64,000 bases of DNA from a virus. Its lineage: Duplodnaviria; Heunggongvirae; Uroviricota; Caudoviricetes. The notes under the pieces are model-generated. The model was given only the letters and a program-made list of their open reading frames with translations, had not been told where the DNA came from and made no database searches. Of the stretch, positions 5,920 to 20,634 are shown piece by piece. The number at the start of each line of letters is the position of its first letter. Position 1 is the stretch's first letter. A program made the position numbers and the translations under genes. The DNA lies in the IMG/VR virus record IMGVR_UViG_3300028610_000968; one strand, given 5' to 3'.

Positions 5920-5948
5920 ATTATAACATATTTTTTGAACCGTGTCAA
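5920..5948 (-). promoter_or_regulatory. Sigma70-type promoter for the replication module
   Basis: TTGACA-17 nt-TATAAT with extended -10 TG. Confidence 0.85.
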
Positions 5949-6043: not shown

Positions 6044-6631
6044 CTATCCCTCCCCACTACCATTATTTAGATTTTCTAATGCAACTATCCTTAAACCATT
6101 ACATTGTTTATCATGATACATAAACTTCATAATACTATCCATCAGTAACGGTTTGTAATCAGTGTCTTCAAGGACAAAGCACACATGATGCTCTGTTAAC
6201 CTACACATATTTTTTTCATGCTCACGTATTAGCCTGTGATTGTTATTATGAAAATGCCCATGAATATTTAAATCAATCCCTGAAGGCATATCCATCGGTA
6301 TGTGTGAAAATAAAACCCACTTGCCTAAATACTTGTCAACAAAATTTTCACAGACAAAATCCCAACCATGCTCTAAATACCAACTGTTAGTTCTCTTGTC
6401 ATGATTTCCTCTAACTAGTATTTTTTTACATTTTATAGGTTCTATGAATTCTCTATGTAATTCTACATCTTTGCCCAAGCCGACATCACCTAAATGTATT
6501 AACACATCATTCTTAGTTAAAAATTCTAGGTTTCTTGAAATACGTTCATTGAAGTCGTTAGGTCTGCCACAGAAATCTATAATCTTCCTGTGGCTCCAAT
6601 GAGTATCACTTATAACAAATGGTCTTGACAT
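6044..6631 (-). CDS. Calcineurin-like metallophosphoesterase
   Basis: SDTH, GD, GNHD, SH, HGHFH motifs. Confidence 0.88.
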   Translation of the reverse strand: MSRPFVISDTHWSHRKIIDFCGRPNDFNERISRNLEFLTKNDVLIHLGDVGLGKDVELHREFIEPIKCKKILVRGNHDKRTNSWYLEHGWDFVCENFVDKYLGKWVLFSHIPMDMPSGIDLNIHGHFHNNNHRLIREHEKNMCRLTEHHVCFVLEDTDYKPLLMDSIMKFMYHDKQCNGLRIVALENLNNGSGEG

Positions 6632-6633
6632 AG

Positions 6634-6720
6634 AGGAAGAAGTAGGATTTGAACCTACGGAACCTTTGACAGTTCACTGAGTTAGCAACCCAGCGCAATA
6701 AGCCGCTCTGCCATTCTTCC
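6634..6720 (-). tRNA. tRNA-Ser(GCT)
   Basis: GGAAGAA/TTCTTCC acceptor, CTGGG-TTGCTAA-CTCAG, long variable arm, GGTTCAAATCC. Confidence 0.9.
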
Positions 6721-6754
6721 TGGAGCCGGGAGAAGCGTTGCAACATTCCCGGCT
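6721..6754 (-). ncRNA. tRNA acceptor-stem minihelix ending in CCA
   Basis: AGCCGGGA-ATGTTGCAACGCTTC-TCCCGGCT-CCA wedged between two Ser tRNAs. Confidence 0.5.
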
Positions 6755-6756
6755 TG

Positions 6757-6847
6757 AGGCAGGAGTAGGATTCGAACCCACGAATCCTCTTCCGAGGACT
6801 AACGGTTTTCAAGACCGTCACAATAAACCAGACTCTGACATCCTGCC
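6757..6847 (-). tRNA. tRNA-Ser(TGA)
   Basis: GGCAGGA/TCCTGCC, ACGGT-CTTGAAA-ACCGT, long variable arm. Confidence 0.9.
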
Positions 6848-6856
6848 GATATTAAA

Positions 6857-7030
6857 CTACTCTACACTTCCAACAATTGCTATACCTAAAACACGATTAG
6901 AAAACAGTTCGATTGCCGCAGCCATCGCTGCCGCAAGCTCTTCCTCGTCAATTGGCAATTGCCTTTGCTCACAATGAGAGCTTGCAATCAATTTTGCATG
7001 TTCAATAATTTTATTTCTATTTATTTCCAT
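6857..7030 (-). CDS. Hypothetical protein (57 aa)
   Basis: Manual: MEINRNKIIEHAKLIASSHCEQ...; ATG overlaps position 76 of the upstream tmRNA-like gene. Confidence 0.55.
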   Translation of the reverse strand: MEINRNKIIEHAKLIASSHCEQRQLPIDEEELAAAMAAAIELFSNRVLGIAIVGSVE

Positions 7031-7032
7031 AG

Positions 7033-7109
7033 TGGAGATGAGCGGATTCGAACCGCTGTCCTGAAGCTGCTCTTTGGCTTTAACTCCAGTCTAAACCATC
7101 AACATCCCC
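7033..7109 (-). ncRNA. tmRNA-like RNA consisting only of the tRNA-like domain (no tag reading frame)
   Basis: GGGGATG/CATCTCC-A with G3:U70; GGTTTAGAC D-loop motif; CTGGAG/CTTCAG helix closed by 17 nt; GGAC-AGCGG-TTCGAAT-CCGCT. Confidence 0.8.
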
Positions 7110-7113
7110 TTAG

Positions 7114-7187
7114 TGGGCCAGGTAGGAGTTGAACCTACAACATTCGAATTCTAAATCCGACTTCTCTGCCAATTGGAATACTGGCCC
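7114..7187 (-). tRNA. tRNA-Leu(TAG), short variable arm
   Basis: GGGCCAG/CTGGCCC, TCGGA-TTTAGAA-TTCGA, 5-nt variable loop. Confidence 0.85.
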
Positions 7188-7649
7188 TTATTTTTTATCT
7201 TTATAATAATACTCAGATTCAACACTCGGTTGTGGCGTTAATTTTTTAATTAATCCCATCTGTAGCTGTTTGCCATATTTACCTGCACAGCTCTTACAAA
7301 AAGGGCCAGCATGACCACTATCAGAATTATGTCTAATCTGACTACCTATCCTATAAAATTTTTCGTTACACCAAATACAGTGTACTTCCACTGGTTTAAC
7401 TCTTTTAGCATCATCTTCACCATGTTGACTTCTACTCACAATTCTTAGGTTTTCAATTCTATCATCAGTGAAATCTCTATTTATGTGGTCTACTGTTTCG
7501 TCAGGCAATAACTTTCTCCCAAGATGTTGCTCCATCAAATACTTTGGGTAAGACATGGTTGTTTGTTTACCGTTGCTATACCAAATCTTTAAATATTTTC
7601 TACCATCTTTTCTTGTATAAGGCCCGTTTATTCTAAAATTATCTTGCAT
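7188..7649 (-). CDS. HNH homing endonuclease
   Basis: MSYPKYLMEQHLGR.L...TVDHINRDFTDDRIENL; C-terminal CxxC pairs. Confidence 0.88.
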   Translation of the reverse strand: MQDNFRINGPYTRKDGRKYLKIWYSNGKQTTMSYPKYLMEQHLGRKLLPDETVDHINRDFTDDRIENLRIVSRSQHGEDDAKRVKPVEVHCIWCNEKFYRIGSQIRHNSDSGHAGPFCKSCAGKYGKQLQMGLIKKLTPQPSVESEYYYKDKK

Positions 7650-7673
7650 GTATACCAATTCCACCACTAACCT
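7642..7673 (-). pseudogene. Orphan tRNA-Leu-type 5' half overlapping the HNH start codon
   Basis: AGGTTAG-TG-GTGG-AATTGGTAT-ACAT-G-CAAGA; no matching 3' half seen. Confidence 0.65.
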
Positions 7674-7848
7674 ATAACATAAAACATTTAAAATCATCGC
7701 AAATATCCCAAGGTTCTCTATCTCCTAGATGGTCTGGATGCTCACATTTCCCATCACTTGTATAAGCTCCTTCTTCATTTGCATTGAAATCATAATAACA
7801 ACAAAAATCACAAACTGGATAATCTCCACAATCAGTACACTTTTCCAT
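7672..7848 (-). CDS. Cys-rich hypothetical protein (58 aa)
   Basis: Manual: MEKCTDCGDYPVCDFCCYY...CEHP...CDDFKC; TAAATG coupling. Confidence 0.6.
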   Translation of the reverse strand: MEKCTDCGDYPVCDFCCYYDFNANEEGAYTSDGKCEHPDHLGDREPWDICDDFKCFML

Positions 7849-8082
7849 TTAGTAAATACGCACCAAAATCCTATCACCGTGTATACGCACAGCAATACCA
7901 AACCAATTGATAGTGTCTCCATCATTAGCTTTGACAATACGCCCATGTTTATCCGACACCCTGACTCTATCTCCTAGCTCAATGTTCATCTCAGATAAAC
8001 AAGTCACATACAAACCATTACCTAGCACTTTAGCTCCACACTCAGAGCAAACCGTAACCTCTAACCTGTCTAATTCATCCAT
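7849..8082 (-). CDS. Hypothetical protein
   Basis: GGAG-8 nt-ATG; CSEC motif. Confidence 0.55.
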   Translation of the reverse strand: MDELDRLEVTVCSECGAKVLGNGLYVTCLSEMNIELGDRVRVSDKHGRIVKANDGDTINWFGIAVRIHGDRILVRIY

Positions 8083-8112
8083 TTTAATAACTCCAACCAT
8101 AGAATTTCATAG

Positions 8113-8183
8113 TTCTAGGTCAAGGGGTCGAACCTCGATTACTGAGTCCAAAGCCCAGCGTCCTACCTTTAGACGAACCTAGA
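8113..8183 (-). tRNA. tRNA-Gln(TTG)
   Basis: TCTAGGT/ACCTAGA, CTGGG-CTTTGGA-CTCAG. Confidence 0.88.
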
Positions 8184-8188
8184 TCGAA

Positions 8189-8617
8189 CTATAGTAAATA
8201 ATGTGCAATTATAAAATTTCTGTAGGTACTATTATTTAAAGCCCTTGGCCTCAATAAGATAATCTTTTCTACTGCCTCTCTGCCTGACATTCCTAATTCG
8301 CACATAGCAATAGCAGCAGCTAATCCAGACCTATTCTCTCCACCATAACATGTCACTAGTACACGTTTGCCTTGTTTTACATTATCAGCAATTAATTTTC
8401 CTACCTCCACAGCCTCTTCAAAGTTATTTATAAGTGGCCTTAGTCCTACATTGGAAGTGTCATGCCAAGGTATCTTGTAACTTACAACATAGTCTGGAAT
8501 CAACTTCCAAGTTTCCGCTGCAAAGCTCACCACTACATCTGCAGGGTGGCTTCCTAATGTTTCCCAACTACCAATAAACAAATTGGTATAAGGTTCTATT
8601 GGATCAATGTTTTCCAT
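8189..8617 (-). CDS. Dual-specificity/Cys-based protein phosphatase
   Basis: CX5R P-loop VTCYGGENRS; PWHD general-acid loop. Confidence 0.85.
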   Translation of the reverse strand: MENIDPIEPYTNLFIGSWETLGSHPADVVVSFAAETWKLIPDYVVSYKIPWHDTSNVGLRPLINNFEEAVEVGKLIADNVKQGKRVLVTCYGGENRSGLAAAIAMCELGMSGREAVEKIILLRPRALNNSTYRNFIIAHYLL

Positions 8618-8619
8618 AG

Positions 8620-8694
8620 TGGAATGTGATGGATTCGAACCACCGGCTAATGAGTTATCGGCTCACTGCTCTGGCCGGACTGAGCTAACATTCC
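8620..8694 (-). tRNA. tRNA-Ile(GAT)
   Basis: GGAATGT/ACATTCC, GTGAG-CCGATAA-CTCAT. Confidence 0.85.
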
Positions 8695-8765
8695 TGGGCA
8701 CGAGTATTCTTATCTCTTTATTTCCCGCACACCCAGTTAGTGTACACCTTTAGATACTGGGCCGG

Positions 8766-8838
8766 TGGAAGTAGAGGGAGTCAAACCCCCGACCTTCGGC
8801 TTGCAAAGCCGCCGCTCTCTCAACTGAGCTATACCCCC
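8766..8838 (-). tRNA. tRNA-Ala(TGC)
   Basis: GGGGGTA/TACTTCC with G3:U70; GCGGC-TTTGCAA-GCCGA. Confidence 0.9.
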
Positions 8839-8904
8839 TTGTGGTGACTGATTTGACCAGGCTGGCTCAATCACCGAAGCCTATCGAGGTAGCGAACCCG
8901 ATTG

Positions 8905-8976
8905 TGGGCAATACTGGATTTGAACCAGTGACATCCTGCTTGTAGAGCAGGCGCTCTCCCCCTGAGCTAATCGCCC
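8905..8976 (-). tRNA. tRNA-Val(TAC)
   Basis: GGGCGAT/ATTGCCC, CCTGC-TCTACAA-GCAGG. Confidence 0.9.
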
Positions 8977-9500
8977 TCTTTTGACTTCTTTATATCTTTT
9001 GTCCTGTGTGGCAAATTATATTTTTTACACCATTTTCGTATAGCATTATCACTGACTCCATACATTTTCCCAATTGACAGAAAACTAGAGTTGAATATAA
9101 GTTTATCAAGTTCTTCTTTACTTGGTCTTAAAACCTTTCTTGCAGCTAAATCAGCACAGTCATGGCTACAATATTTTTGAACGGTGTTAGTTCTTTTGAA
9201 CTTTTTTCCACAAACTAAACATAACATCAATTTAGAAGATTCAGTCTGATAAGTACCATCACCATTATCAATTAATCTGCCACCCCTATGATACCTTGCA
9301 TGAGCTGCTAAAGTAGAAAAGATCATCAAATTATCTGGATTGTTATTCTTCTTGTCACCGTCTATGTGATGTACAGTTTCTCTTCCTTCTAGAAACCTTC
9401 CTATCTTTTTTTCGGCCACAATTATATGTTCGTATCTATATCTACTATCCATCAATGTGCCTTCAGATGATTTTATATACACATACTTATTACTTGGCAA
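8967..9500 (-). CDS. HNH homing endonuclease with Zn-ribbon and C-terminal HTH
   Basis: YEHIIVAEKKIGR.L...VHHIDGDKKNNNPDNL; CLVC..CSHDC; GKMYGVSDNAIRKWC; stop lies inside tRNA-Val. Confidence 0.9.
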   Translation of the reverse strand: MPSNKYVYIKSSEGTLMDSRYRYEHIIVAEKKIGRFLEGRETVHHIDGDKKNNNPDNLMIFSTLAAHARYHRGGRLIDNGDGTYQTESSKLMLCLVCGKKFKRTNTVQKYCSHDCADLAARKVLRPSKEELDKLIFNSSFLSIGKMYGVSDNAIRKWCKKYNLPHRTKDIKKSKEGD

Positions 9501-9515
9501 TCTTTCTCACTTCCT

Positions 9516-9548
9516 AGCTGCCACTCTGCACTACTGAGTTACTCACCT
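9516..9548 (-). pseudogene. Orphan tRNA 5' half upstream of HNH
   Basis: AGGTGAG-TA-ACTC-AGTAGTGCA-GAGT-G-GCAGC-T followed by purine-rich RBS-like sequence. Confidence 0.6.
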
Positions 9549-9718
9549 AAATGTTTCTCAAAAAATTCTTTTATAATCTTCTCTAATTTATCATTTTCTA
9601 CATAGTACAACCAAGTCTCAAATCCGTGAGGTTGTGGTACGCCATGTGGAGCATTTGAAATTATCTGCCCCAACCTAAGATTATGTATCTTTTCTTTCGG
9701 TATAATTCTATCACTCAT
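9539..9718 (-). CDS. Hypothetical protein (~59 aa)
   Basis: Manual: ...NLRLGQIISNAPHG...WLYYVENDKLEKIIKEFF; stop inside the orphan tRNA half. Confidence 0.5.
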   Translation of the reverse strand: MSDRIIPKEKIHNLRLGQIISNAPHGVPQPHGFETWLYYVENDKLEKIIKEFFEKHLGE

Positions 9719-10293
9719 TATGGTTTACGCCTTATCTCCAAGCCCACTACGTTTCCTAATAGTTCCCAACCATCTTCAGGGTTCATATTCTCTTCACCGT
9801 AGAAGTTAATTCCCCAGTGAGCATTTGTGTGGTCTGTACCATCATCACCAGGAACCCAATCATGTGACATTACAACGCCACCACTCTTAACAAACGGTAT
9901 GAACTTCTCATAGTCCAACTTAACCATTTCTGGTATGTGACAACCATCAATTATAAGTAAATCTATTTCTTTTTCCCACTCTACATCTTGGCTTCTTCCA
10001 GTAATGATATTAGTTTCTAAACCTAATTCTTCTAAGGTAGCTCTAAATTCTTCTTCAGAGTTCCCCAACGACCAATCATCTATGCCATAAGTCTCAAAAC
10101 CTTTTTCTTTGGCTACATAGGTCAGCACAGAAGTTGTTATCCCCCTACATATGCCTATCTCCAAAGCAACGTCACCTTTGCCCAATTGTGCAGCACAGTC
10201 ATACACAGCTTCTCTTTGCCCCATACTCATGGAATAGATTATATCTATATCTTTTGTAAGATTTATTATCTCTTTGAAATTCAAACTACACAC
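9718..10293 (-). CDS. Class I SAM-dependent methyltransferase (Methyltransf_24-like)
   Basis: ALEIGICRG, IDLLIIDGCH, GGVVMSHD. Confidence 0.85.
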   Translation of the reverse strand: MCSLNFKEIINLTKDIDIIYSMSMGQREAVYDCAAQLGKGDVALEIGICRGITTSVLTYVAKEKGFETYGIDDWSLGNSEEEFRATLEELGLETNIITGRSQDVEWEKEIDLLIIDGCHIPEMVKLDYEKFIPFVKSGGVVMSHDWVPGDDGTDHTNAHWGINFYGEENMNPEDGWELLGNVVGLEIRRKP

Positions 10294-11038
10294 CCAAAGT
10301 TTCTAAACGATTACTTACCTCTAATTTTGCTGGTGAACCATCCCTTAGTGTAGGATTAATGGCATTAAATACATTGTACTTGGTCGTAAGTTTTGCACTA
10401 ATTGAATGCAACACAATGGTGTTGAGCAATTCCCAACTAACTTCAGCCCATTTGTGTGCAGCTAAGATACCATCTGAAGGACATAAACCAGGCCAATTAA
10501 CTCTCAATACTATACTCTCTAATCCCTTGGCTTTCTCTACTTCTTTTTCAGCAACAACTTTACTTCTGGCATATAAGTTCAGTTCATCCCAGTTGGCCTC
10601 ATGACTTAACGGAATGGGGTAACTTTCTGGTTCTACAAATCCACCATCAAAGCCGTACAGAGCACCTGTTGAAAAGTAAATAATTCTCTCACAAGGTTTA
10701 CCTGCTTGTGCTGTTACTCTTTTCTTCTGAGATTTACTTGTAGTCTTAACCTTTGTTGGGGTATTTGCTTTCTTCATAGCAGCTAGAACAGCTTTAGTCC
10801 CACCAACATTAAGTCTCTCAAATTCTTCCCATGATTTACTTGGGTCAAAATGTGGAATAGCAGCAGTGTGGATAACTGCATCATTACCTTTGATTCTCTT
10901 TGCTAAAGCAGTGGTATCAAAAATATCATCACCATCTGCAATATCATAGATGTCTACTTCTACGCCACTCTCTCTCAGGAAAGGGATAATTTGCCCACAC
11001 AAAAATCCTCTTCCTCCTGTTACTAATACTTTACTCAA
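10286..11038 (-). CDS. NAD-dependent epimerase/dehydratase (extended SDR)
   Basis: VLVTGGRGFLC, HTAA, YxxxK (YARSK). Confidence 0.85.
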   Translation of the reverse strand: MSKVLVTGGRGFLCGQIIPFLRESGVEVDIYDIADGDDIFDTTALAKRIKGNDAVIHTAAIPHFDPSKSWEEFERLNVGGTKAVLAAMKKANTPTKVKTTSKSQKKRVTAQAGKPCERIIYFSTGALYGFDGGFVEPESYPIPLSHEANWDELNLYARSKVVAEKEVEKAKGLESIVLRVNWPGLCPSDGILAAHKWAEVSWELLNTIVLHSISAKLTTKYNVFNAINPTLRDGSPAKLEVSNRLETLGV

Positions 11039-11066
11039 AATACATCATCCTTTTCTTTTTTATTTG

Positions 11067-11137
11067 CAGGTGATAGAGGAATCGAACCCCTGTCTTTCGT
11101 TTTGGAGACGACTATAATACCCCTATACGAATCACCT
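11067..11137 (-). tRNA. tRNA-Trp(CCA)
   Basis: AGGTGAT/ATCACCT, G73, loop CTCCAAA. Confidence 0.85.
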
Positions 11138-11141
11138 ATAG

Positions 11142-11214
11142 CGACAGCAAAGGGAGTCGAACCCTCACCAACTTCCTCGACAGGGAAGTGCTCTAACCGT
11201 TAAGCTATACTGCC
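11142..11214 (-). tRNA. tRNA-Asp(GTC)
   Basis: GGCAGTA/TGCTGTC, CTTCC-CTGTCGA-GGAAG. Confidence 0.88.
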
Positions 11215-11385
11215 TTATATCTTTTTTATGTCTGTTACTACTTCTATATTTATGGTTTTAGATTCATACAGTTTATTCACAGCTTTTTTGGCTGTAGATG
11301 CTGAAACAACACGAGAACCTTCTTCTGGTGTCATGTAAGGACAATCTACAAAATGCCACATATATGATATAAAATATTCATTCAT
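11215..11385 (-). CDS. Hypothetical protein (56 aa) sandwiched exactly between tRNA-Arg and tRNA-Asp
   Basis: Manual: MNEYFISYMWHFVDCPY...; ATG at tRNA-Arg position 76, TAA adjacent to tRNA-Asp G1. Confidence 0.55.
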   Translation of the reverse strand: MNEYFISYMWHFVDCPYMTPEEGSRVVSASTAKKAVNKLYESKTINIEVVTDIKKI

Positions 11386-11387
11386 AG

Positions 11388-11461
11388 TCTGCCAGAAGAG
11401 ATTTGAACTCCTAGTCTCAGGGGTAGAAACCCTGCGCCTTCTCCAGTTAGACCACTGGCAG
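11388..11461 (-). tRNA. tRNA-Arg(TCT)
   Basis: CTGCCAG/CTGGCAG, CAGGG-TTTCTAC-CCCTG. Confidence 0.85.
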
Positions 11462-11466
11462 TTAAT

Positions 11467-11985: not shown

Positions 11986-12000
11986 ATTATCATCTACTCA

Positions 12001-12030
12001 CGTTGCTCTGTCCAATTGAGCTACAGTCGG
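12001..12030 (-). pseudogene. Orphan tRNA-Arg-type 5' half upstream of HNH
   Basis: CCGACTG-TA-GCTC-AATTGGACA-GAGC-A-ACG; no matching 3' half seen. Confidence 0.65.
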
Positions 12031-12184
12031 TTATTTCTTTAATCTGCGCCAATTCTTTATCGGATGAAAATAATAATAAGTCGCTTCTTTCACCTGTTTT
12101 ATTAACCACTTCATAATAATGGACTTCTACAAAAGTAGCAGAAACTATTATCTGAGGGGTTCATAGTCCCACATCTAGAACACT

Positions 12185-12466
12185 TCATTTAATCCTAATA
12201 TCCATTCTATCTGGAAGCTTGTTAACTAGTTCTACTAATACATCACCATGACAATCTTTAGGTTTACACCAACACCCAAGAACTTTACCCTCTAGCTCAT
12301 GCAAATCTGCCATTAGTTCTTTATTCATAGTAATCCATTCACAGTATTTACCTATAACTCGTTTTCTATCTCCGTCACGACCAAGGATGAATGGATTACC
12401 CCACTTAGTTCTTCTATCTATTAATATATCGTATGATTCTTTTTGACAGTGTACTACTCTAGTCAT
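12185..12466 (-). CDS. DUF4326-family protein
   Basis: IDRRTKWGNPF...GDR..VI.KY...L.GKVLGCWCKPKDCHGDVL. Confidence 0.85.
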   Translation of the reverse strand: MTRVVHCQKESYDILIDRRTKWGNPFILGRDGDRKRVIGKYCEWITMNKELMADLHELEGKVLGCWCKPKDCHGDVLVELVNKLPDRMDIRIK

Positions 12467-12665
12467 TATCGTGTAACTCCTTATCACAAATAGGGCAAAA
12501 TAAACGAATAACAGGGCCACGCCACTCTCCACCATAGCTACCAATCTCGTCCATGTATCTCTGATTACTTGTCCGTATATCTCTCATTGTTGGTTGCACT
12601 GTATTCTTACACTCTTTACATTCGAGTAATGGGTCACGTTCTGCATCTATATTAAAATCAGTCAT
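12459..12665 (-). CDS. Hypothetical Zn-ribbon protein
   Basis: CKEC...CPIC. Confidence 0.55.
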   Translation of the reverse strand: MTDFNIDAERDPLLECKECKNTVQPTMRDIRTSNQRYMDEIGSYGGEWRGPVIRLFCPICDKELHDND

Positions 12666-12796
12666 CTAATTCCCTACAATCCATAATATCTTCATTTATA
12701 CATTTCTCATGGAAATAAATATAGTACCCGGCAGAGTCTTCTCTTTGCCAACTATCCCTGTCTTTCATATCAATAGGTTCTCTACAAAGAGTACAG

Positions 12797-13012
12797 TTAG
12801 GCACGAAGTTCACTCCTCAATTCAAAATAATTATCACAGTACCAATTAGGAACAGCTAAAAACTGGTGAGGAACTGGATGGCCTTCTTTATTCCATATTT
12901 TAATAGCTTCTTCAAATGCTTTACAGTACCTATGCTCACATGTCCAACAACATCTTTTCGTTATAAAATTATCTTTTTCCCAATTCTCTCTTACATAATC
13001 TCTAGGTTCCAT
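12797..13012 (-). CDS. Hypothetical Cys-rich protein
   Basis: CCWTCEHRYC; packed in operon. Confidence 0.55.
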   Translation of the reverse strand: MEPRDYVRENWEKDNFITKRCCWTCEHRYCKAFEEAIKIWNKEGHPVPHQFLAVPNWYCDNYFELRSELRA

Positions 13013-13300
13013 CTACTTAGCCTCTAACTCTTTAATATAAGTTATAAGTTCAAGTGATTCATGATAAGTCAGTCCTGCTACCAAATCTCTCAGTCTTTCT
13101 TCCATACCCTCAACATCTGGTCTGCCCACTATACTCGCCTTAATTGGAGGAGTACTATTTTTTGGGCCTCTCTTGGCTCCAAATACTTTTTGTTTTCTAC
13201 TTGGTCTCTCACCTGTTCCACCACAAGCATGGCATGGTGCAAAGTTATCATATTCTCCACTACCACCACAAGCAAAACATTTCTCAGCCACGGAACTCAC
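13013..13300 (-). CDS. Protein with DnaJ-type Zn-finger repeats
   Basis: CFACGGSG...CHACGGTG. Confidence 0.6.
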   Translation of the reverse strand: MSSVAEKCFACGGSGEYDNFAPCHACGGTGERPSRKQKVFGAKRGPKNSTPPIKASIVGRPDVEGMEERLRDLVAGLTYHESLELITYIKELEAK

Positions 13301-13784
13301 TTCTTAAATCCATCATTATTTGTGCAAAGGTAGGATTAGGAATAGATACTGAATCTGGTAATCTTTCACCTTTACTATTCCATAGTATATGAGTTATTGG
13401 TCTATCTCCTGTATCAAATAATAGTTTCAAAATATCGTGATTACTCATCAGTTTGTACCTAACAGCCAGTTTCATCAAACCCCAATGTTTAGGGCTGCCG
13501 ACCTCATATAGCTTTCCCCAAAGTTCAAATGTGGTGGCTCTTTCACCATATGTGTAGAGTAACTGAGCTTTATCGCCATACCTCTTAGCTTCTACTCCAT
13601 AAAGTTTGTTGACCTTCTTTCTCTCCCTGCGGCTTGGGAATTTAAGACCTTGCCAAAATCCTTCAACAGAGTTGTACTTGCGTGACCCCACACTAATGTA
13701 GAATGGAGAGTAAGCTAAGTTGCTCAACATACGTTCTGTTAAATCATTACTTTGTGAATTTATATTTACTGGTTCATTGCTCAT
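13284..13784 (-). CDS. NADAR-superfamily protein
   Basis: LSNLAYSPF...YNSVEGFWQGLKF...AKRYG...KLM.NHDILKLLFDTG. Confidence 0.75.
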   Translation of the reverse strand: MSNEPVNINSQSNDLTERMLSNLAYSPFYISVGSRKYNSVEGFWQGLKFPSRRERKKVNKLYGVEAKRYGDKAQLLYTYGERATTFELWGKLYEVGSPKHWGLMKLAVRYKLMSNHDILKLLFDTGDRPITHILWNSKGERLPDSVSIPNPTFAQIMMDLRSEFRG

Positions 13785-14043
13785 ATTTTTTTATATTCAT
13801 CGGACACCAATCAGGTAAATCCAAATCTTCCTTTTCCTCCCTAGACAACAAGCACTCATACATACTGAGGCTTGCCATATGACATTGTAAACATTTTTGC
13901 AATTTTCTGTAGTCACTCCTGATTTCAGAACAATCACAACAATTACAACAACCATCATACCTTTTGCCCTTTTTATGATTTTTTATAAACTCTTTCCAAA
14001 GAATTGTATTGCCAACTAGTATATTTATTTCACCTTTTTGCAT
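13774..14043 (-). CDS. Hypothetical Cys-rich protein
   Basis: ATG at tRNA-Phe position 76; CCNCCDC, LPDWCPM. Confidence 0.55.
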   Translation of the reverse strand: MQKGEINILVGNTILWKEFIKNHKKGKRYDGCCNCCDCSEIRSDYRKLQKCLQCHMASLSMYECLLSREEKEDLDLPDWCPMNIKKYEQ

Positions 14044-14045
14044 AG

Positions 14046-14118
14046 TCGAGACGAAAGGAATCGAACCTCTGTCGCGTAGGGCTTCAACCTACCGCTCTAC
14101 CACTAGAGCTACGTCTCG
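14046..14118 (-). tRNA. tRNA-Phe(GAA)
   Basis: CGAGACG/CGTCTCG, GTAGG-TTGAAGC-CCTAC. Confidence 0.88.
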
Positions 14119-14122
14119 GGGC

Positions 14123-14194
14123 GCAGGGTGGTGGGACTTTAACCCACGGCCTCCTGAGTCGTACCCAGGTGCTCTTTCTCTGAGCTACACCCCG
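14123..14194 (-). tRNA. Atypical tRNA, anticodon ACG (Arg) on a Pro-like body; possible pseudo-tRNA
   Basis: CGGGGTG/CACCCTG, C73, loop GTACGAC, abnormal T-loop TTAAAGT. Confidence 0.55.
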
Positions 14195-14199
14195 CATTG

Positions 14200-14274
14200 T
14201 CTAGATGGTAGGATTCGAACCCACGACTTCCCGGCCCCAAACCGGGCGCTCTTACCAAACTGAGCTACACCCAG
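14200..14274 (-). tRNA. tRNA-Pro(TGG)
   Basis: CTGGGTG/CATCTAG, CCCGG-TTTGGGG-CCGGG. Confidence 0.9.
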
Positions 14275-14284
14275 ATATTAATCT

Positions 14285-14431
14285 TTAATAACGTTTCTCA
14301 TCCTTCTTATTAATGCCACACACTGTACATCTATGGCCTATGTTTGATTCATTGTGAAGTCTGCGTTGACGACCATACCTTTTATCCTGGTACTCATGCT
14401 CGCATGTACACATTTTAACTACTGTTGCCAT
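14285..14431 (-). CDS. Small Zn-binding hypothetical protein
   Basis: AGGAG RBS; CTCEHEYQDKRYG...LHN...CTVC. Confidence 0.6.
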   Translation of the reverse strand: MATVVKMCTCEHEYQDKRYGRQRRLHNESNIGHRCTVCGINKKDEKRY

Positions 14432-14563
14432 TTTACTCTCCTTTAATGTTGTTCTGGCCTGCCTAGAGGGAGGTACGTCTACTACTATAAAACCTGCTTC
14501 GGTCAAATAGCACACCAATTGGAACTCCCCCACAGGACTTACACGCCAGAAATCTTTTATAAA

Positions 14564-14836
14564 TTACTCACTGCTTCGCCTTAAATCCAAACCTAATACT
14601 CCTAATACTGGTTTAGCGAATTTATCATGGCCTACCGTCGCTCCCAAAAGTCCAACAAAAGCTGTAGCTGCCGCTGTTACTGTTAAATCAACTTGCCCAG
14701 TCAGCACCGCAAGAGCCACTGCTCCAACAGTTGAACCAATAGCAATCAATTCTACAGCCGTATTTTTGAAGATGTATTTAGATACCTGAGTAGACACCCA
14801 AATACCAGCTCCAAAAGTTAATGCTAAATCTAACAT
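14564..14836 (-). CDS. Small membrane protein (holin-like)
   Basis: Three hydrophobic segments, basic C-terminus, GGGAGGGG RBS. Confidence 0.5.
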   Translation of the reverse strand: MLDLALTFGAGIWVSTQVSKYIFKNTAVELIAIGSTVGAVALAVLTGQVDLTVTAAATAFVGLLGATVGHDKFAKPVLGVLGLDLRRSSE

Positions 14837-14868
14837 ATATTATATCACCCCTCCCGAGTTTGATGTAG

Positions 14869-14943
14869 AGCTGATGGTAGGATTTGAACCCACGACTCCC
14901 TCATTACAAGTGAGGAACTCTGGCCTGACTGAGTTACACCAGC
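14869..14943 (-). tRNA. tRNA-Thr(TGT)
   Basis: GCTGGTG/CATCAGC, CCTCA-CTTGTAA-TGAGG. Confidence 0.9.
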
Positions 14944-14957
14944 ATATATATTATTTG

Positions 14958-15030
14958 GGTGACAGGAGGGACTCGAACCCTCGTACCAGAGGCCACAACT
15001 CTGTGTCTATACCTACTTGACTACTGCCAC
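14958..15030 (-). tRNA. tRNA-His(GTG)
   Basis: GTGGCAG/CTGTCAC, C73, CAGAG-TTGTGGC-CTCTG; position -1 is T. Confidence 0.88.
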
Positions 15031-15032
15031 AG

Positions 15033-15118
15033 TGGAAACGGTAGGAGTCGAACCTACGAAGCCCTTTCGCAACGGCGGGGTTACAGCCCGCATCCTTTAA
15101 CCACTTGGATACACTTCC
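15033..15118 (-). tRNA. tRNA-Tyr(GTA)
   Basis: GGAAGTG/CGTTTCC, GCGGG-CTGTAAC-CCCGC, long variable arm. Confidence 0.9.
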
Positions 15119-15505
15119 TTAATTAACTAAAAACTTTTTATACAATAAACCTAAATTTATAGTTGCTCTTTCTTTGCCAGTTAATATTGCTGTGGGTATC
15201 AAGTACTCCTCAAAATCCCCAGTAACTACAAAAATAAAATCAACACTATCCACATCAAACAGTTTTACAGTGTTTCTGCTCTTATTACCACCATTAACTC
15301 TCAAATCAACTTTGTAAACGCCACACTCAGACTTCAAACTAGTGTACTTAACTTCAACTTTGCCTAAAGTTTTAGTGTTTATTCTTTCTATAACTAAATC
15401 ATAGGATTGACTATCATTTAATGGAATAGAAACTATATAACCATTACCAGTGAACCAAGCTATAGCTCTACCTAAAGCAATATTTCCTTTTTCTTTTGTG
15501 TTCAT
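15119..15505 (-). CDS. PD-(D/E)XK endonuclease (PDDEXK_5 / group I intron-associated type), free-standing
   Basis: KEKGNIALGRAIAWF...VSIPLNDSQSYDLVI...KVEVK...DFIFVV. Confidence 0.8.
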   Translation of the reverse strand: MNTKEKGNIALGRAIAWFTGNGYIVSIPLNDSQSYDLVIERINTKTLGKVEVKYTSLKSECGVYKVDLRVNGGNKSRNTVKLFDVDSVDFIFVVTGDFEEYLIPTAILTGKERATINLGLLYKKFLVN

Positions 15506-15507
15506 AG

Positions 15508-15584
15508 CGGAAATGATAGGATTCAAACCTACACAGCTGTTGCGGATGCGCCCACCCTTGAGTTCATCAATACTCAGCATTTCC
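15508..15584 (-). ncRNA. tRNA-like RNA with a 4-nt loop in place of the anticodon loop
   Basis: GGAAATG/CATTTCC-G; GAGT/ACTC D stem; GGGTG-GGCG-CATCC; GTAGG-TTTGAAT-CCTAT. Confidence 0.7.
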
Positions 15585-15588
15585 AGGC

Positions 15589-15715
15589 GGCTCCTTCTCG
15601 GGGTCGCACAACCCTCTCCGGAGCCTTCACGTGATTTGTGCGAGGCCAACGTTATCGGGAAACATCCCAGGCACAACGCATGGCCAACTCATTCTACCCA
15701 TACGGTAGGTGAGTT
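15589..15715 (-). ncRNA. Candidate structured RNA (three hairpins plus a possible pseudoknot)
   Basis: AACTCA/TGAGTT, GGCCA/TGGCC, GGCTCC/GGAGCC stems; loop TGTGCG complementary to linker CGCACA. Confidence 0.5.
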
Positions 15716-15717
15716 TG

Positions 15718-15789
15718 AGAAAGTGGATGGAATCGAACCATCCTTAATGGCTTTGCAGGCCATCCCCCACTGCCAGTAGGCTCACTTTC
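15718..15789 (-). tRNA. tRNA-Cys(GCA)
   Basis: GAAAGTG/CACTTTC, U73, ATGGC-CTGCAAA-GCCAT. Confidence 0.9.
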
Positions 15790-16197
15790 TTATTCTAAAA
15801 ATTCTCTAGCTTCATCCTCATAGGGTTCGTATGTTATCTTCCTATCTGCTAATTCTGCTAACACCATAGTTAACAACGGAACCCAACCAATCATGCTCTG
15901 CTCTGACGCATAGTATTTACTACAACTGTATAATTTTTCTCCAGTTGATGCGTAAACACCAAAGTAATTGTATCCATGTTGGACTACCTTACAGTCTGGA
16001 TTTTCTTTTATTACTTTGTATAGTCTTGATTCTTTAACATCCACAACTACGTCCTTGTACTCTCCACAGGATTCAGTCAGAGCGCCTATTTTTTTCCTCA
16101 ACATATTCATACAAAAATGAAAGCTTAGGCAATTCCCACATAGAGTCATACCTTGTAGTTTTTTCAACATCTTATCTGAGACCAATTTCTTACTCAT
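15790..16197 (-). CDS. Hypothetical protein
   Basis: 135-aa ORF; stop abuts tRNA-Cys G1. Confidence 0.6.
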   Translation of the reverse strand: MSKKLVSDKMLKKLQGMTLCGNCLSFHFCMNMLRKKIGALTESCGEYKDVVVDVKESRLYKVIKENPDCKVVQHGYNYFGVYASTGEKLYSCSKYYASEQSMIGWVPLLTMVLAELADRKITYEPYEDEAREFLE

Positions 16198-16199
16198 TC

Positions 16200-16433
16200 C
16201 TAAGCTCCTCCATTCTCACTATCTGCTGTTGCACTAAACCAGCTATACTCACATCTTCTACATTTTATAATTAAATATTCTGATTCATCAACAAAGGGTT
16301 GTAAGTCTAACCAACCTGGCATTGTAAAAGCAAACTCTCTTGCATCATTAGTCATTTCTCTATATGTCACATAAGTATAAGTACATAAACACTTAGGGCA
16401 TTGAAAACTCTCAACTAATTTAAAATTTTCCAT
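16200..16433 (-). CDS. Hypothetical Zn-ribbon protein
   Basis: ATG at tRNA-Asn position 76; CPKC...CRRC. Confidence 0.6.
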   Translation of the reverse strand: MENFKLVESFQCPKCLCTYTYVTYREMTNDAREFAFTMPGWLDLQPFVDESEYLIIKCRRCEYSWFSATADSENGGA

Positions 16434-16435
16434 AG

Positions 16436-16508
16436 CTGCTCCACTAGGAGTCGAACCTAGAGCTACTGACTTAACAGGCCAGCGTTCTACCAATTGAACT
16501 ACAGAGCA
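16436..16508 (-). tRNA. tRNA-Asn(GTT)
   Basis: TGCTCTG/TGGAGCA, G73, CTGGC-CTGTTAA-GTCAG. Confidence 0.9.
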
Positions 16509-16840
16509 TTGTATTTTTGTAGTGCTATCCACAGACGAGCTACTGCTTCTTCAGGGGTATCGCCTCTTTTTGTTTCTAGCATTAAGCTATTTGGACTAAT
16601 TCGTGCCTGCGCTACCCAACCAGCACTATATGATGGGTGCATTACTCCCCGAAACCCATCCCCACAAGCAGCTATCAGCTCTGAAAGTGTGGGGACTTCA
16701 TAAAATTCTTTATCAGCCCTACGTGGCCAGTCTCTATAATGATAAAGTTCTTTTGTTGTCGCTCCATAGCAATAGTCAAAGATTCCCTCTTGCGAATACC
16801 CTTTTTCTTCCAGTTCCTTCGCTAATTCATATGTAATCAT
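16499..16840 (-). CDS. Hypothetical phage protein
   Basis: MITYELAKELEEKGY...PTLSELI...TPEEAVARLWIAL; ATG at tRNA-Met position 76. Confidence 0.7.
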   Translation of the reverse strand: MITYELAKELEEKGYSQEGIFDYCYGATTKELYHYRDWPRRADKEFYEVPTLSELIAACGDGFRGVMHPSYSAGWVAQARISPNSLMLETKRGDTPEEAVARLWIALQKYNAL

Positions 16841-16842
16841 AG

Positions 16843-16916
16843 TAGCGGTAGTGGGATTTGAACCCACGACCTTCGGCTCATGAGGCCGACGAGATAGACC
16901 ACTTCTCCATACCGCG
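16843..16916 (-). tRNA. tRNA-Met(CAT), initiator-like
   Basis: CGCGGTA/TACCGCT with C1xU72 mismatch; TCGGC-CTCATGA-GCCGA (lacks the third G-C pair of canonical fMet). Confidence 0.8.
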
Positions 16917-16924
16917 TCGTTTAC

Positions 16925-17362
16925 TTATTTAAAATCTACCACTACGAACTTGTCGTCTTGGTTCAAATATTTATCTAGTATTGGTTCTACATCTTTCCAA
17001 TTTAATTTACCATTTCCGCATCCTACTTTTGGCAAATAAACAGTGTCTACTGTTGTGGCCGCTCCCACAAATGCTAAATTCCTTGTGGATTGTTCAATAA
17101 GAGGTAAATCTGCTTTTTGTTTCCAATGATGTTTGACCGGAAAACTTAACATATGTGGATTAATATAGTGAACAACATTACCGTGTGATTTTATAAACGT
17201 ACCTAAAAGCATTGGAAAATTAGGATACTTCTCTCGAGCCTGTTTTGCTAACCCAGCTCCCATAACACATTCTCCGTTACTCTTAACAAAACCATTTGTG
17301 GGTATTACTATATAATGTCCTTTTTTATGATAATCCCATATGTTTCCTTTAATCACTTTCAT
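16925..17362 (-). CDS. Macro-domain (ADP-ribose binding/hydrolase) protein
   Basis: MKVIKGNIW...IPTNG...VMGAGLAKQAR..YP...FPVKHHW...PKVGCGNGKLNW. Confidence 0.85.
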   Translation of the reverse strand: MKVIKGNIWDYHKKGHYIVIPTNGFVKSNGECVMGAGLAKQAREKYPNFPMLLGTFIKSHGNVVHYINPHMLSFPVKHHWKQKADLPLIEQSTRNLAFVGAATTVDTVYLPKVGCGNGKLNWKDVEPILDKYLNQDDKFVVVDFK

Positions 17363-17364
17363 AG

Positions 17365-17437
17365 TGCTCTCGGTGAGACTTGAACTCGACATCGCTGGAT
17401 TGAAAGTCCAGCATCCTAACCTTTAGACGACAAGAGC
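17365..17437 (-). tRNA. tRNA-Glu(TTC)
   Basis: GCTCTTG/CGAGAGC, CTGGA-CTTTCAA-TCCAG. Confidence 0.88.
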
Positions 17438-17489
17438 ATGAGGGAGTTTTTCACGCCAGGATTACCCCCGAACCTGCTGTACAGTTAAA

Positions 17490-18098: not shown

Positions 18099-18157
18099 AC
18101 CATCTTTTTTAAAGTACTTCAGACTGAATCACCTCCCTCAATCTTGTGTACTGTTAG

Positions 18158-18227
18158 TTGGGAGTCTAGGACTTGAACCCAGATTACCGCCCCTCAAGAA
18201 CGGCGTCCTCACTTAGACGAACTCCCA
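18158..18227 (-). tRNA. Atypical tRNA: Gln-like body with TGA (Ser) anticodon
   Basis: TGGGAGT/ACTCCCA (U1-A72), TCGTCTAA D-arm, loop CTTGAGG, 4-nt variable loop. Confidence 0.6.
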
Positions 18228-20605: not shown

Positions 20606-20634
20606 ATAATAACATATAGTTAGGGGCTTGTCAA
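20606..20634 (-). promoter_or_regulatory. Sigma70-type promoter at the head of the RNA island
   Basis: TTGACA-17 nt-TATTAT with extended -10 TG; -35 sits inside the inverted repeat TAGGGG-N8-CCCCTA. Confidence 0.75.

Follow-up and report, generated by a model that had tools for sequence, protein, structure and literature searches.

Start codons sharing nucleotides with tRNA 3' ends in the tRNA cluster of a large phage, and a possible role of tRNA processing in the translation of accessory genes

The window analysed here is a 64,000-nucleotide stretch of the genome (approximately 129 kb) of a large, uncultivated phage. The only sequencing run located for it is of metagenomic DNA. In the window lies a 14.6 kb cluster in which 24 tRNA or tRNA-like RNAs and about 28 ORFs share the minus strand. 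ARAGORN identified 22 tRNAs (6633–20513, all minus strand), to which we add a tmRNA-type domain recognised by Rfam and a tRNA-like cloverleaf at 15506–15584. The cluster starts at a promoter-like site just upstream of tRNA-Gly (20513), and the promoter of the next unit lies directly after its last gene (Table 1). Inside the cluster we found no site comparable to the head promoter and no convincing terminator, and packing is tight, with many ORF–ORF gaps between −17 and +2. We infer that the whole cluster is a single polycistronic transcript of approximately 14.6 kb.

Table 1. Features of the tRNA/ORF cluster and its flanks discussed in the text (window coordinates).
Positions	Strand	Feature	Basis
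5920..5948	-	Promoter of next unit: perfect consensus TTGACA, 17 nt, TATAAT, with TG	Directly after operon's last gene
6044..6631	-	Metallophosphoesterase ORF, 195 aa, operon's last gene; ATG at tRNA-Ser position 76	Metallophos profile
6633..6720	-	tRNA-Ser(gct), then C-T-A-T-G	ARAGORN, sequence
6857..7030	-	57-aa ORF; ATG at mini-tmRNA position 76; no SD	Start-site analysis
7030..7109	-	Mini-tmRNA: tmRNA-type tRNA-like domain, 80 nt, G3:U70, A73	Rfam RF00023, 65.3 bits
7188..7697	-	HNH_3 endonuclease ORF; TAA abuts G1 of tRNA-Leu	Domain match, gap
7849..8082	-	77-aa ORF with own SD (GGAG, 9-nt spacer)	Direct reading
8084..8110	-	8-codon mini-ORF; ATG at tRNA-Gln position 76	Direct reading
8112..8183	-	tRNA-Gln(ttg), then C-T-A-T-G	ARAGORN, sequence
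8189..8617	-	Dual-specificity-phosphatase-like ORF, 142 aa; ATG at tRNA-Ile position 76; no SD	Domain match
8619..8694	-	tRNA-Ile(gat), then C-T-A-T-G	ARAGORN, sequence
8967..9500	-	HNH_3 endonuclease ORF; TAG stop is nt 8-10 of tRNA-Val	Domain match, gap
11215..11385	-	56-aa ORF; ATG at tRNA-Arg position 76	Start-site analysis
11387..11461	-	tRNA-Arg(tct), then C-T-A-T-G	ARAGORN, sequence
13774..14043	-	89-aa ORF; ATG at tRNA-Phe position 76; no SD	Start-site analysis
14045..14118	-	tRNA-Phe(gaa), then C-T-A-T-G	ARAGORN, sequence
15119..15505	-	PD-(D/E)XK nuclease ORF, 128 aa; ATG at position 76 of tRNA-like element	PDDEXK_5
15506..15584	-	tRNA-like element (pseudo-tRNA), then N73-C-T-A-T-G	MFE structure is a cloverleaf
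15790..16197	-	135-aa SD-led ORF; TAA abuts nucleotide 1 of tRNA-Cys	Gap
16200..16433	-	77-aa zinc-ribbon-like ORF; ATG at tRNA-Asn position 76	Domain, start-site analysis
16435..16508	-	tRNA-Asn(gtt), then C-T-A-T-G	ARAGORN, sequence
16499..16840	-	113-aa ORF of widespread phage family; ATG at tRNA-Met position 76	554 homologues
16842..16916	-	tRNA-Met(cat), then C-T-A-T-G	ARAGORN, sequence
16925..17362	-	Macro-domain ORF, 145 aa; A of ATG is tRNA-Glu position 76; no SD	PHROG match from residue 1
17364..17437	-	tRNA-Glu(ttc), then C-T-A-T-G	ARAGORN, Rfam, sequence
20606..20634	-	Operon-head promoter-like site: TTGACA, 17 nt, TATTAT, with TG	11/12 matches; just upstream of tRNA-Gly (20513)

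Direct checking of the sequence showed C-T-A-T-G after the discriminator in exactly the ten elements named in the original prediction, namely Ser-gct, the mini-tmRNA, Gln, Ile, Arg-tct, Phe, the pseudo-tRNA, Asn, Met and Glu. As was also predicted, nine of these ATGs open substantial ORFs (195, 57, 142, 56, 89, 128, 77, 113 and 145 codons in the same order, omitting Gln), and the Gln junction opens a mini-ORF of only eight codons. An ORF follows a tRNA at 13 places, and in nine of them the AUG occupies tRNA positions 76–78 (N73-C74-U75-A76-U-G). The spacing is bimodal, being zero in nine cases and 11–58 nt in four, with none intermediate. C74 is kept in every tRNA of the cluster. The mini-tmRNA is without a tag-coding part and ends in C-T-A, the A being shared with an ATG. 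The element at 15506–15584 is predicted, from thermodynamic folding of this one sequence, to have a 7-bp acceptor stem, a D arm, a 5-bp stem with a GGCG tetraloop and a T arm, without an anticodon loop; it was called neither by ARAGORN nor by the Rfam tRNA model.

The downstream ends of the ORFs are similarly compact. The claim that four TAA codons directly abut nucleotide 1 of the next tRNA (gap of 0 at 7188, 11215, 15119 and 15790) and that two stops fall within a tRNA is correct: the stops at 8967 and 16499, the latter also a TAG, are nucleotides 8–10 (U8-A9-G10) of tRNA-Val and tRNA-Asn, respectively. ORFs 11215–11385 and 15119–15505 are bracketed completely, with an ATG at position 76 upstream and a TAA abutting G1 of tRNA-Asp and tRNA-Tyr, respectively, downstream.

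The junction pattern is non-random, far beyond chance. CTATG would be expected about 0.03 times at 24 fixed sites and is seen ten times, in the same register and with the same CT ahead of the ATG in 10/10; among 323 unascertained phage tRNAs its frequency is 5.3% (binomial P = 1.6e-7). The word as such is neither under- nor over-represented in the window (120 copies on both strands, 128 ± 10 expected). This count, together with 62 further copies on the coding strand, mostly within long genes, makes it very improbable that a MazF-like, sequence-specific endoribonuclease of host or phage origin recognises CUAUG and makes leaderless mRNAs wherever the word occurs; the window showed no enzyme of this kind. 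The idea does accommodate a second CTATG 10 nt past the Gln junction, where CT precedes an alternative in-frame ATG (8100) of ORF 7849–8082. The mini-ORF at this junction spans a GGAG and stops 1 nt ahead of the ATG at 8082, and ORF 7849–8082 is possibly translationally coupled to it.

Judged by sequence comparison, the nine junction starts are genuine, since their first residue coincides with the beginning of domain models and of hundreds of homologues. PDDEXK_5 profile positions 1–114 correspond to residues 1–116 of ORF 15119–15505, and Metallophos position 5 to residue 6 of ORF 6044–6631, which, like approximately 50 of its homologues, starts 3–6 residues ahead of the D-x-H motif. The N-terminus of ORF 16499–16840, M-I-T-Y-E-L-A-K, aligns at residue 1 with the aligned members of its 554-member family. 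That the junction ORFs are not genes, or start elsewhere, is already largely refuted and has a next to negligible probability. Five of the nine do lack a Pfam or PHROG family, and the PD-(D/E)XK gene has an upstream in-frame ATG at 15580 with an SD-like GAAGGAG. Against this, ORFs of 56–195 codons exactly fill the inter-tRNA gaps where about 7.5% of random triplets would be stops (an estimate from base frequencies), four have domain matches starting at residues 1–6, and one of the orphans is the ORF with 554 homologues sharing its N-terminus.

The predicted lack of a Shine–Dalgarno sequence outside the tRNA was borne out. Eight of the nine junction starts have no SD and no SD-led in-frame alternative start nearby, and the sole SD-like motif, the GGAG of ORF 16200–16433, sits within the tRNA-Asn acceptor stem. 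In the window, a dG of −4.5 or below is found for 77% of long ORFs versus 16% of internal start codons, and at least two of the four spaced ORFs (those after Thr and Gln) have a clear SD. All nine junction ORFs start with AUG, compared to TTG or GTG in approximately 45% of well-supported window starts, and there is hardly any structure in their first 42 nt (mean −2.1 kcal/mol, background −4.8). An AUG and an unstructured start are known requirements of leaderless initiation (PMC8459731).

Starting at position 76 and lacking a ribosome-binding site, these genes probably depend for their translation on prior removal of the preceding tRNA by cleavage, as in mitochondria. With only 3 nt between the acceptor helix and the AUG, and no room for an SD, a ribosome would most likely be unable to load as long as the folded tRNA is attached. 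If an endonuclease cleaved the RNA at the 3' end of the tRNA, either behind N73 (RNase Z/BN type) or at the U75–A76 bond (RNase E type), the mRNA set free would carry a 5'-monophosphate, with its AUG at this end or 2 nt from it, and would be read by a leaderless, SD-independent route. The tRNA would retain C74 and be completed by trimming and the host CCA-adding enzyme, and the degenerate tRNA-like element and the mini-tmRNA may, at least in part, be processing marks of the same kind. We infer the cut and the mode of initiation from the observed anatomy, genuine starts, missing SDs and repeated independent origin (below); exposure of a leaderless or 2-nt-leader AUG by tRNA 3' processing is in our view the best reading, with roughly even chances of being right.

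The mitochondrion-like punctuation originally proposed stands as regards the anatomy, the probable single polycistronic unit and the genuine starts, but its strict form is weakened because C74 is universal, a 2-nt leader is costly and two stops lie inside tRNAs. Pellegrini (2003) reportedly found that the first C carries most of the suppression of RNase Z. Cytidines directly after the discriminator suppress the RNase Z of B. subtilis and wheat, and E. coli RNase BN removes CU or CA after N73 (PMC7479834). In Caulobacter, leaderless initiation drops about 4-fold when the leader is 2 nt long, and in E. coli a single leading nucleotide is already inhibitory (PMC8459731), so that a cut after N73 would yield a poor leaderless mRNA. 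For ORFs 8967–9500 and 16499–16840, an RNase P cut at the next tRNA would remove the stop codon, and these mRNAs would have to be read ahead of it.

A possible, though less probable, account is that C-U-A is simply the tRNA 3' trailer preferred by this phage and that genes, sliding upstream, have come to start at the first A available, SD-less initiation on an A-rich, unstructured start being aided by S1 whether or not the tRNA is removed. The tightness of the whole operon agrees with this, as does the presence of CTA after N73 in 14/24 elements, including four without an ORF behind. Elsewhere too, CTA is the commonest phage tRNA trailer, CTAT is the spacer in 21/87 tRNA–tRNA cases, and ORF starts in unascertained phage tRNAs show no general peak at position 76 (3/86). 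However, sliding predicts a spread of short spacers, rather than nine identical registers beside four spacers of 11–58 nt. U75 is moreover tied to ORF-abutting junctions, both here (CTA in 10/10 abutting elements versus 4/14 others; Fisher P = 6e-4) and in other phage contigs, where 23/48 CT-ATG starts at position 76 lead into an ORF of at least 40 codons, versus 10/47 for CA-ATG (P = 0.009). Judging from ribosome structure, the folded acceptor/T-arm helix 3 nt before the AUG is also bulky and closer than the shortest workable SD spacing.

It is unlikely that the 5-mer is a by-product of insertion rather than a translation device, accessory genes having been swapped into the array at CTAT/G tRNA–tRNA spacers, for example with help from resident homing endonucleases. 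Three HNH_3 genes overlap or abut tRNAs of the cluster, as in T5, the cluster has an Asp-CTAT-Trp junction of its own, CTAT-G1 junctions being common elsewhere, and homologues of the ORFs reside outside tRNA arrays in other phages. Such swapping would account neither for the expression of genes with intact domains and no SD, nor for the retention at the junction of nine intact genes with conserved N-termini; 5 nt of identity is also too short to direct recombination.

The check originally suggested, CTATG enrichment in other phage tRNA clusters, revealed only sporadic use, the junction occurring in at least 25 further contigs of uncultivated phages, and no general peak. In other phage contigs, 27/28 such position-76 ORFs of at least 40 codons have no SD-led alternative start. 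The nearest relative found (57–59% protein identity) has one junction in 15 tRNAs and is too distant for following individual junctions. The homologues examined of the phosphoesterase and of the 554-member family are found in normal arrays of ORFs and in no case follow a tRNA. Because homologues elsewhere are never tRNA-abutted, comparison indicates that the same junction is built repeatedly and independently in this lineage. It is absent from T4 and T5, and our literature search found no published description of phage position-76 junctions.

Among phages, T5 (AY543070, 28–41 kb) is similar in its long same-strand array of approximately 24 tRNAs interleaved with small ORFs, HNH homing endonucleases overlapping tRNA genes, tRNA-like stable RNAs of unknown function and one ORF stop abutting a tRNA 5' end. 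It differs in that all its tRNA genes encode CCA, following ORFs start 10–20 nt later with clear SDs and no ATG at position 76, and internal promoters are annotated. The T4 cluster resembles the present one in having phage tRNA genes without an encoded CCA, some with C74 followed by non-C, which need trailer removal (endo- or exonucleolytic) and CCA addition, but T4 has no ORF directly at a tRNA 3' end, segB starting 41 nt past tRNA-Ile.

In human mtDNA, tRNA punctuation was reportedly described by Ojala, Montoya and Attardi in 1981. As in mitochondria (reviewed in PMC4394434 and PMC3790967), a polycistronic transcript has tRNAs directly flanking ORFs with 0–3 nt before the AUG and no SD, and mRNA ends would come from tRNA excision by RNase P and RNase Z. 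Unlike mitochondria, this bacterial virus has other genes with strong SDs, complete stops, none finished by polyadenylation and two inside the next tRNA, and an AUG overlapping position 76 in a fixed CU-AUG register, with processing that is proposed. Plant mitochondrial t-elements are said (Forner et al. 2007) to be tRNA-like structures serving only as processing signals for mRNA ends. The element at 15506–15584 resembles them in keeping the acceptor, D and T arms, with a tetraloop replacing the anticodon loop, and in directly preceding an ORF; it differs in being known from one folded sequence, and its cleavage is putative.

Bacterial leaderless mRNAs include lambda cI, Tn1721 tetR, Caulobacter and actinobacterial sets, and those made by MazF. 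The junction ORFs share their AUG-only, SD-less, unstructured starts (PMC8459731), and according to the discussion in PMC3848588 leaderless mRNAs can arise by RNA cleavage as well as at transcription starts. The known examples come from a promoter at the AUG or a toxin nuclease, whereas the proposed maker in this phage would be the tRNA-processing machinery. As the cut would expose the AUGs of the accessory genes, their expression would be coupled to tRNA maturation.

ARAGORN called 22 tRNAs on the minus strand between 6633 and 20513, and the array also holds a tmRNA-type domain (mini-tmRNA) and a further cloverleaf-folding element (pseudo-tRNA), both listed in the table. When the bases following the discriminator were read directly, C74 was present in all 24 elements and CCA was encoded by none; the triplet C-T-A followed the discriminator in 14. 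The sequence C-T-A-T-G follows N73 in exactly the ten elements named in the original prediction, namely the mini-tmRNA, the pseudo-tRNA and tRNAs Ser-gct, Gln, Ile, Arg-tct, Phe, Asn, Met and Glu, so that position 76 of the tRNA is also the first base of an ATG. Nine of these ATGs open substantial ORFs, as predicted (195, 57, 142, 56, 89, 128, 77, 113 and 145 codons), and the one behind tRNA-Gln opens an ORF of only 8 codons. The predicted 3′ boundaries are likewise present: four ORFs end in a TAA that directly adjoins the first nucleotide of the following tRNA, two others take their stop from U8-A9-G10 of tRNA-Val and tRNA-Asn, and two ORFs are bracketed by tRNA elements on both sides. The ORFs are flanked by tRNAs on one strand at the 0–3 nt distances typical of mitochondria, and the stops of the junction region are all complete (TAA, TAG or TGA).

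The spacing between tRNA and ORF is bimodal. Nine of the 13 transitions have no spacer and four have one of 11–58 nt, with nothing in between; a clear Shine-Dalgarno (SD) sequence is found in at least two of the four spaced transitions (Thr and Gln). The 8-codon Gln ORF spans the SD of the next gene and ends 1 nt before its ATG. Judged by sequence, this is a classic layout for translational coupling and is consistent with initiation taking place at position 76.

Coordinates of features in and around the tRNA operon, and of one structural-region gene
Feature	Coordinates	Strand	Basis or remark
Near-consensus promoter	20634-20606	-	pattern scan; just upstream of first tRNA
YrlA-type Y-RNA-like match	20231-20356	-	42 bits, below gathering score; upstream of Ro60 gene
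Ro60/TROVE protein with vWA domain	18253-19683	-	Pfam TROVE, 4e-17
'tRNA-Ser(tga)', 71 nt	18157-18227	-	ARAGORN; just downstream of Ro60 gene
GC-rich stretch, 131 nt	15586-15716	-	between tRNA-Cys and pseudo-tRNA
Cloverleaf-folding element (pseudo-tRNA)	15506-15584	-	anticodon arm replaced by 5-bp stem and GGCG tetraloop
Bracketed ORF	15119-15505	-
DUF4326 protein	12185-12544	-
HNH_3 endonuclease gene	11467-11985	-	ends at or inside next tRNA gene
Bracketed ORF	11215-11385	-
NAD-dependent epimerase/dehydratase-like protein	10286-11038	-
Class I methyltransferase	9718-10293	-	Methyltransf_24
HNH_3 endonuclease gene	8967-9500	-	ends at or inside next tRNA gene
HNH_3 endonuclease gene	7188-7697	-	ends at or inside next tRNA gene
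tRNA-Leu(tag), 75 nt	7113-7187	-
tmRNA-type tRNA-like domain (mini-tmRNA), 80 nt	7030-7109	-	Rfam RF00023, 65 bits
Perfect consensus promoter	5948-5920	-	pattern scan; just after last gene
Lectin-fold protein, 264 aa	45837-46631	-	Laminin_G_3

The word CTATG occurs 120 times on the two strands of the window, against an expectation of 128 ± 10, whereas at the 24 fixed positions behind the discriminators about 0.03 copies are expected and ten are observed. What is special about CTATG is its placement only, and not its frequency. The same count disfavours cleavage by a nuclease specific for CUAUG, since the word is not avoided, and we regard such an enzyme as very improbable. As a baseline, we retrieved more than 100 viral contigs carrying a tRNA that ends in CTATG, and restricted the counts to those 323 of their tRNAs on whose choice the search pattern can have had no influence. 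ATG occupied positions 76–78 in 17 of these (5.3%), a rate at which 10 of 24 has P = 1.6e-7. Within the window, CTA is found in all ten elements that abut an ORF vs four of the other 14 (P = 6e-4). The overlap of tRNA and start codon is anatomically solid and statistically strong.

The positions of the start codons are supported by homology. Residue 1 of the PD-(D/E)XK protein, behind the pseudo-tRNA, corresponds to profile position 1 of Pfam PDDEXK_5; residue 6 of the phosphoesterase, behind tRNA-Ser, corresponds to position 5 of the Metallophos profile; and the macro-domain protein, behind tRNA-Glu, has a PHROG match from residue 1. About 50 metagenomic homologues of the phosphoesterase start 3–6 residues ahead of the D-x-H motif, as the window protein does. 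The 113-residue orphan behind tRNA-Met has 554 homologues of similar length, and the conserved block starts at residue 1–2 in all 12 aligned members of this family. A search near the nine junction ATGs found no SD-led in-frame alternative start. We note that the PD-(D/E)XK gene has an in-frame ATG further upstream, at 15580, preceded by an SD-like GAAGGAG; however, it is with the downstream ATG that the homologous profiles begin, and the sequence separating the two ATGs contains a T arm and an acceptor stem of 7 perfect base pairs. That the junction ORFs are simply mis-called is in our judgement scarcely credible.

SDs are generally strong in this phage: an anti-SD duplex at least as stable as −4.5 kcal/mol is available to a start of 77% of long ORFs, compared with 16% of internal start codons. 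The original prediction held that the junction ORFs have no room for an SD outside the tRNA, and the duplex energies agree, being −3.0 to +2.4 kcal/mol at eight of the nine starts; at the ninth start, which follows tRNA-Asn, there is a GGAG, but it belongs to the acceptor stem. All nine junction ORFs start with AUG, whereas among the other well-supported starts of the window about 45% are TTG or GTG, and the mean MFE of nucleotides +1 to +42 is −2.1 kcal/mol, against a background of −4.8. Leaderless initiation depends on an AUG start, little RNA structure and as short a leader as possible (PMC8459731). The junctions share with it the absence of an SD (8/9), the AUG and the unstructured start region; the length of the leader would hinge on where the RNA is cut.

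A pattern scan placed candidate promoters at both ends of the array and found no comparable promoter or convincing terminator between 20606 and 5948, and the operon is therefore likely to be transcribed as a single 14.6-kb precursor. We considered transcription starting at each ATG from a promoter within the tRNA and rejected it, because the ten acceptor stems are unrelated and contain no −10 element. Without a conserved −10-like element ahead of the ATGs, an RNA 5′ end at the AUG could arise only by cleavage.

In the uncut precursor, each junction AUG sits 3 nt from the 12-bp coaxial acceptor/T-arm helix, which is nearer to the AUG than an SD helix could work and takes up far more room. The tRNA would be cut away first, leaving an mRNA with its AUG 0–2 nt from a 5′-phosphate end, which would then be translated by the leaderless route; on the sequence evidence, we consider the chances about even that excision is needed before translation in this way. 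Cutting after N73 would leave a CU-AUG leader, and the mRNA would be perfectly leaderless if the cut fell between U75 and A76. By a fitted curve, a CU-AUG leader retains about one quarter of full leaderless activity in Caulobacter, and in E. coli leaderless initiation is inhibited by even one extra base (PMC8459731). The RNase Z enzymes of B. subtilis and wheat are suppressed by cytidines after the discriminator, and E. coli RNase BN removes CU or CA (PMC7479834). Because C74 is universal among the window elements, it is uncertain which enzyme would be responsible. A scan of 40 window proteins identified none as an RNA-processing or CCA-adding enzyme.

At the other end of the ORFs, RNase P cleavage at the four abutting ORFs would place the stop codon at the extreme 3′ end of the mRNA. 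Strict 3′-side punctuation cannot hold, as the sequence reads, where the stop is within the following tRNA; the two ORFs of this kind must be translated with that tRNA attached. An alternative to excision is that the junctions reflect compaction, with SD-independent initiation taking place on the uncut precursor. We consider this rather unlikely; it has to accommodate the acceptor/T-arm helix beside the AUG.

Megablast found no near-identical phage in the phage record collection. A search of sequencing runs listed one that contains this DNA, a subsurface metagenome that may be its source, and no RNA run. Searches for viral-contig relatives using the Ro60-like, macro-domain and PD-(D/E)XK proteins gave 0, 1 and 1 loci, and the phosphoesterase gave 7 viral and 51 metagenome loci; none of these shares the junctions of the window. 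In the closest relatives found, at 57–59% protein identity, one of 15 tRNAs forms such a junction, and homologues of the phosphoesterase and of the 113-residue protein lie in ordinary ORF arrays in other phages, never abutted by a tRNA. The same junction therefore arose repeatedly in the lineage of this phage, and this speaks for selection of that register. Nine identical junctions of independent origin need explaining even if the mechanism is another one.

A general enrichment of CTATG in the tRNA clusters of other phages, put forward as a check on the idea, did not emerge: the occurrences are sporadic, with no general peak at position 76. Among unascertained tRNAs, ORFs start at position 76 in 3 of 86, and ATGs at position 76 open long ORFs about equally often as those 4–40 nt further on. 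We therefore rejected a general phage preference for ATG at position 76, given the rate of 5.3% among 323 tRNAs and the lack of an offset peak. Roughly 27–28 tRNA-CT-ATG junctions in other uncultivated phage contigs nevertheless open ORFs of 40–409 codons, 27 of 28 of which have no SD-led alternative start.

In the tRNAs of the window and in 782 tRNAs from the retrieved viral loci, almost every gene retains C74, whereas C75 has mostly given way to another base (CTA > CAA > CCA > CTT); A76 is present in about half, and CTAT recurs as a 4-nt spacer between neighbouring tRNAs. As a spacer between two tRNAs, CTAT followed by G1 of the second is common (21 of 87). Insertion at such CTAT|G spacers, helped by the probable homing endonucleases of the array, would also leave the junction as a scar, and we rate this as improbable. 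When tRNA-verified matches with no other tRNA behind them were compared, an ORF of at least 40 codons followed CT-ATG in 23 of 48 cases vs 10 of 47 for CA-ATG (P = 0.009), and 17 of 57 for CC-ATG. These counts indicate that the base at position 75 matters. A U before AUG is able to pair with A37 of the initiator tRNA, and two G residues of RNase P RNA bind CCA. C74 and U75 could contact these G residues, and either the A37 pairing or the RNase P contact could explain the preference for U75.

In its anatomy, the arrangement is a variant of two known kinds, organellar tRNA punctuation and the T5-type tRNA region. It shares directly flanking tRNAs with mitochondrial punctuation, but not the incomplete stops completed after cleavage. 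With its 24 tRNA-like genes, three HNH_3 genes, mini-tmRNA, pseudo-tRNA and structured 131-nt RNA, the array is of the T5/T4 type; T5 has about 24 tRNAs, HNH endonucleases overlapping tRNAs, tRNA-like stable RNAs and small ORFs. In T5, however, all tRNA genes encode CCA and ORFs lie 10–20 nt behind tRNAs with clear SDs, whereas the window has no spacer at 9 of 13 transitions and there lacks the SD-bearing spacer of T5 and T4. T4 has tRNAs without CCA, some with C74, but no abutting ORF. Compared with the t-elements of plant mitochondria, which are non-decoding tRNA-like processing signals next to mRNA ends, the pseudo-tRNA has a predicted cloverleaf as its MFE structure, in which a GGCG tetraloop replaces the anticodon loop, at a z-score of only −1.2 from a single sequence; neither ARAGORN nor Rfam calls it. 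Our literature search found no report of phage tRNA punctuation, tRNA/start-codon overlap or leaderless mRNAs made by tRNA processing, and as far as we could find the junctions are undescribed.

The operon has other unusual contents. The T5 F-Tfl endonuclease genes also end at or inside the next tRNA gene, like the HNH_3 genes here, which by sequence are probably homing endonucleases targeting tRNA genes. In the tRNA-Leu(tag) the variable arm is short and the D stem has 3 bp; the leucine tRNAs of bacteria and of T4/T5 are class II with a long arm. The long variable arm of serine tRNAs is missing from the 'tRNA-Ser(tga)', whose 6-bp anticodon stem includes wobble pairs; rather than decoding, it may serve as a tRNA-like module. 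The Ro60 gene and the Y-RNA-like match look like a phage-encoded Ro/Y-RNA module within the operon. Folding of the 131-nt stretch predicts four strong hairpins (−55.8 kcal/mol, z = −4.3; none of the shuffled sequences was as stable), and Rfam has no match for it; the stretch probably encodes a stable RNA comparable with the unexplained ones in the tRNA region of T5. The DUF4326 protein, methyltransferase and epimerase-like protein also lie among the tRNAs. The mini-tmRNA has alanine identity (G3:U70, A73) and no tag reading frame. As RNase P cleavage of the operon would produce mRNAs ending at, or without, a stop codon, a link to ribosome rescue is conceivable, though this is pure speculation. 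Outside the operon, the lectin-fold protein, a concanavalin-like fold, also matches the receptor-binding N-domain family of clostridial neurotoxins, and from its position among structural genes is probably a tail-fibre or receptor-binding module.

We tentatively propose, at somewhat less than even confidence, that the tRNAs, together with degenerate tRNA-like marks retained for this role, serve as obligatory punctuation, from which host tRNA 3′ processing would release pAUG or pCUAUG mRNAs for SD-less accessory genes, with U75 selected as the base ahead of the start codon. Mitochondrial punctuation would then have a counterpart in bacteria, scattered among many uncultivated phages, in which tRNA maturation would gate accessory-gene translation. 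If so, it would offer a simple rule for annotating those genes of phage tRNA arrays that have no SD and that gene callers often truncate or miss, and compact tRNA-ORF junctions could be used as parts for synthetic operons. The tRNA-processing machinery would be capable of making leaderless mRNAs, and the timing of the accessory genes (phosphoesterase, phosphatase, macro domain and nuclease) would be tied to tRNA production. If tRNA excision does make these genes translatable, the logic of organellar punctuation would extend to viruses that infect bacteria.
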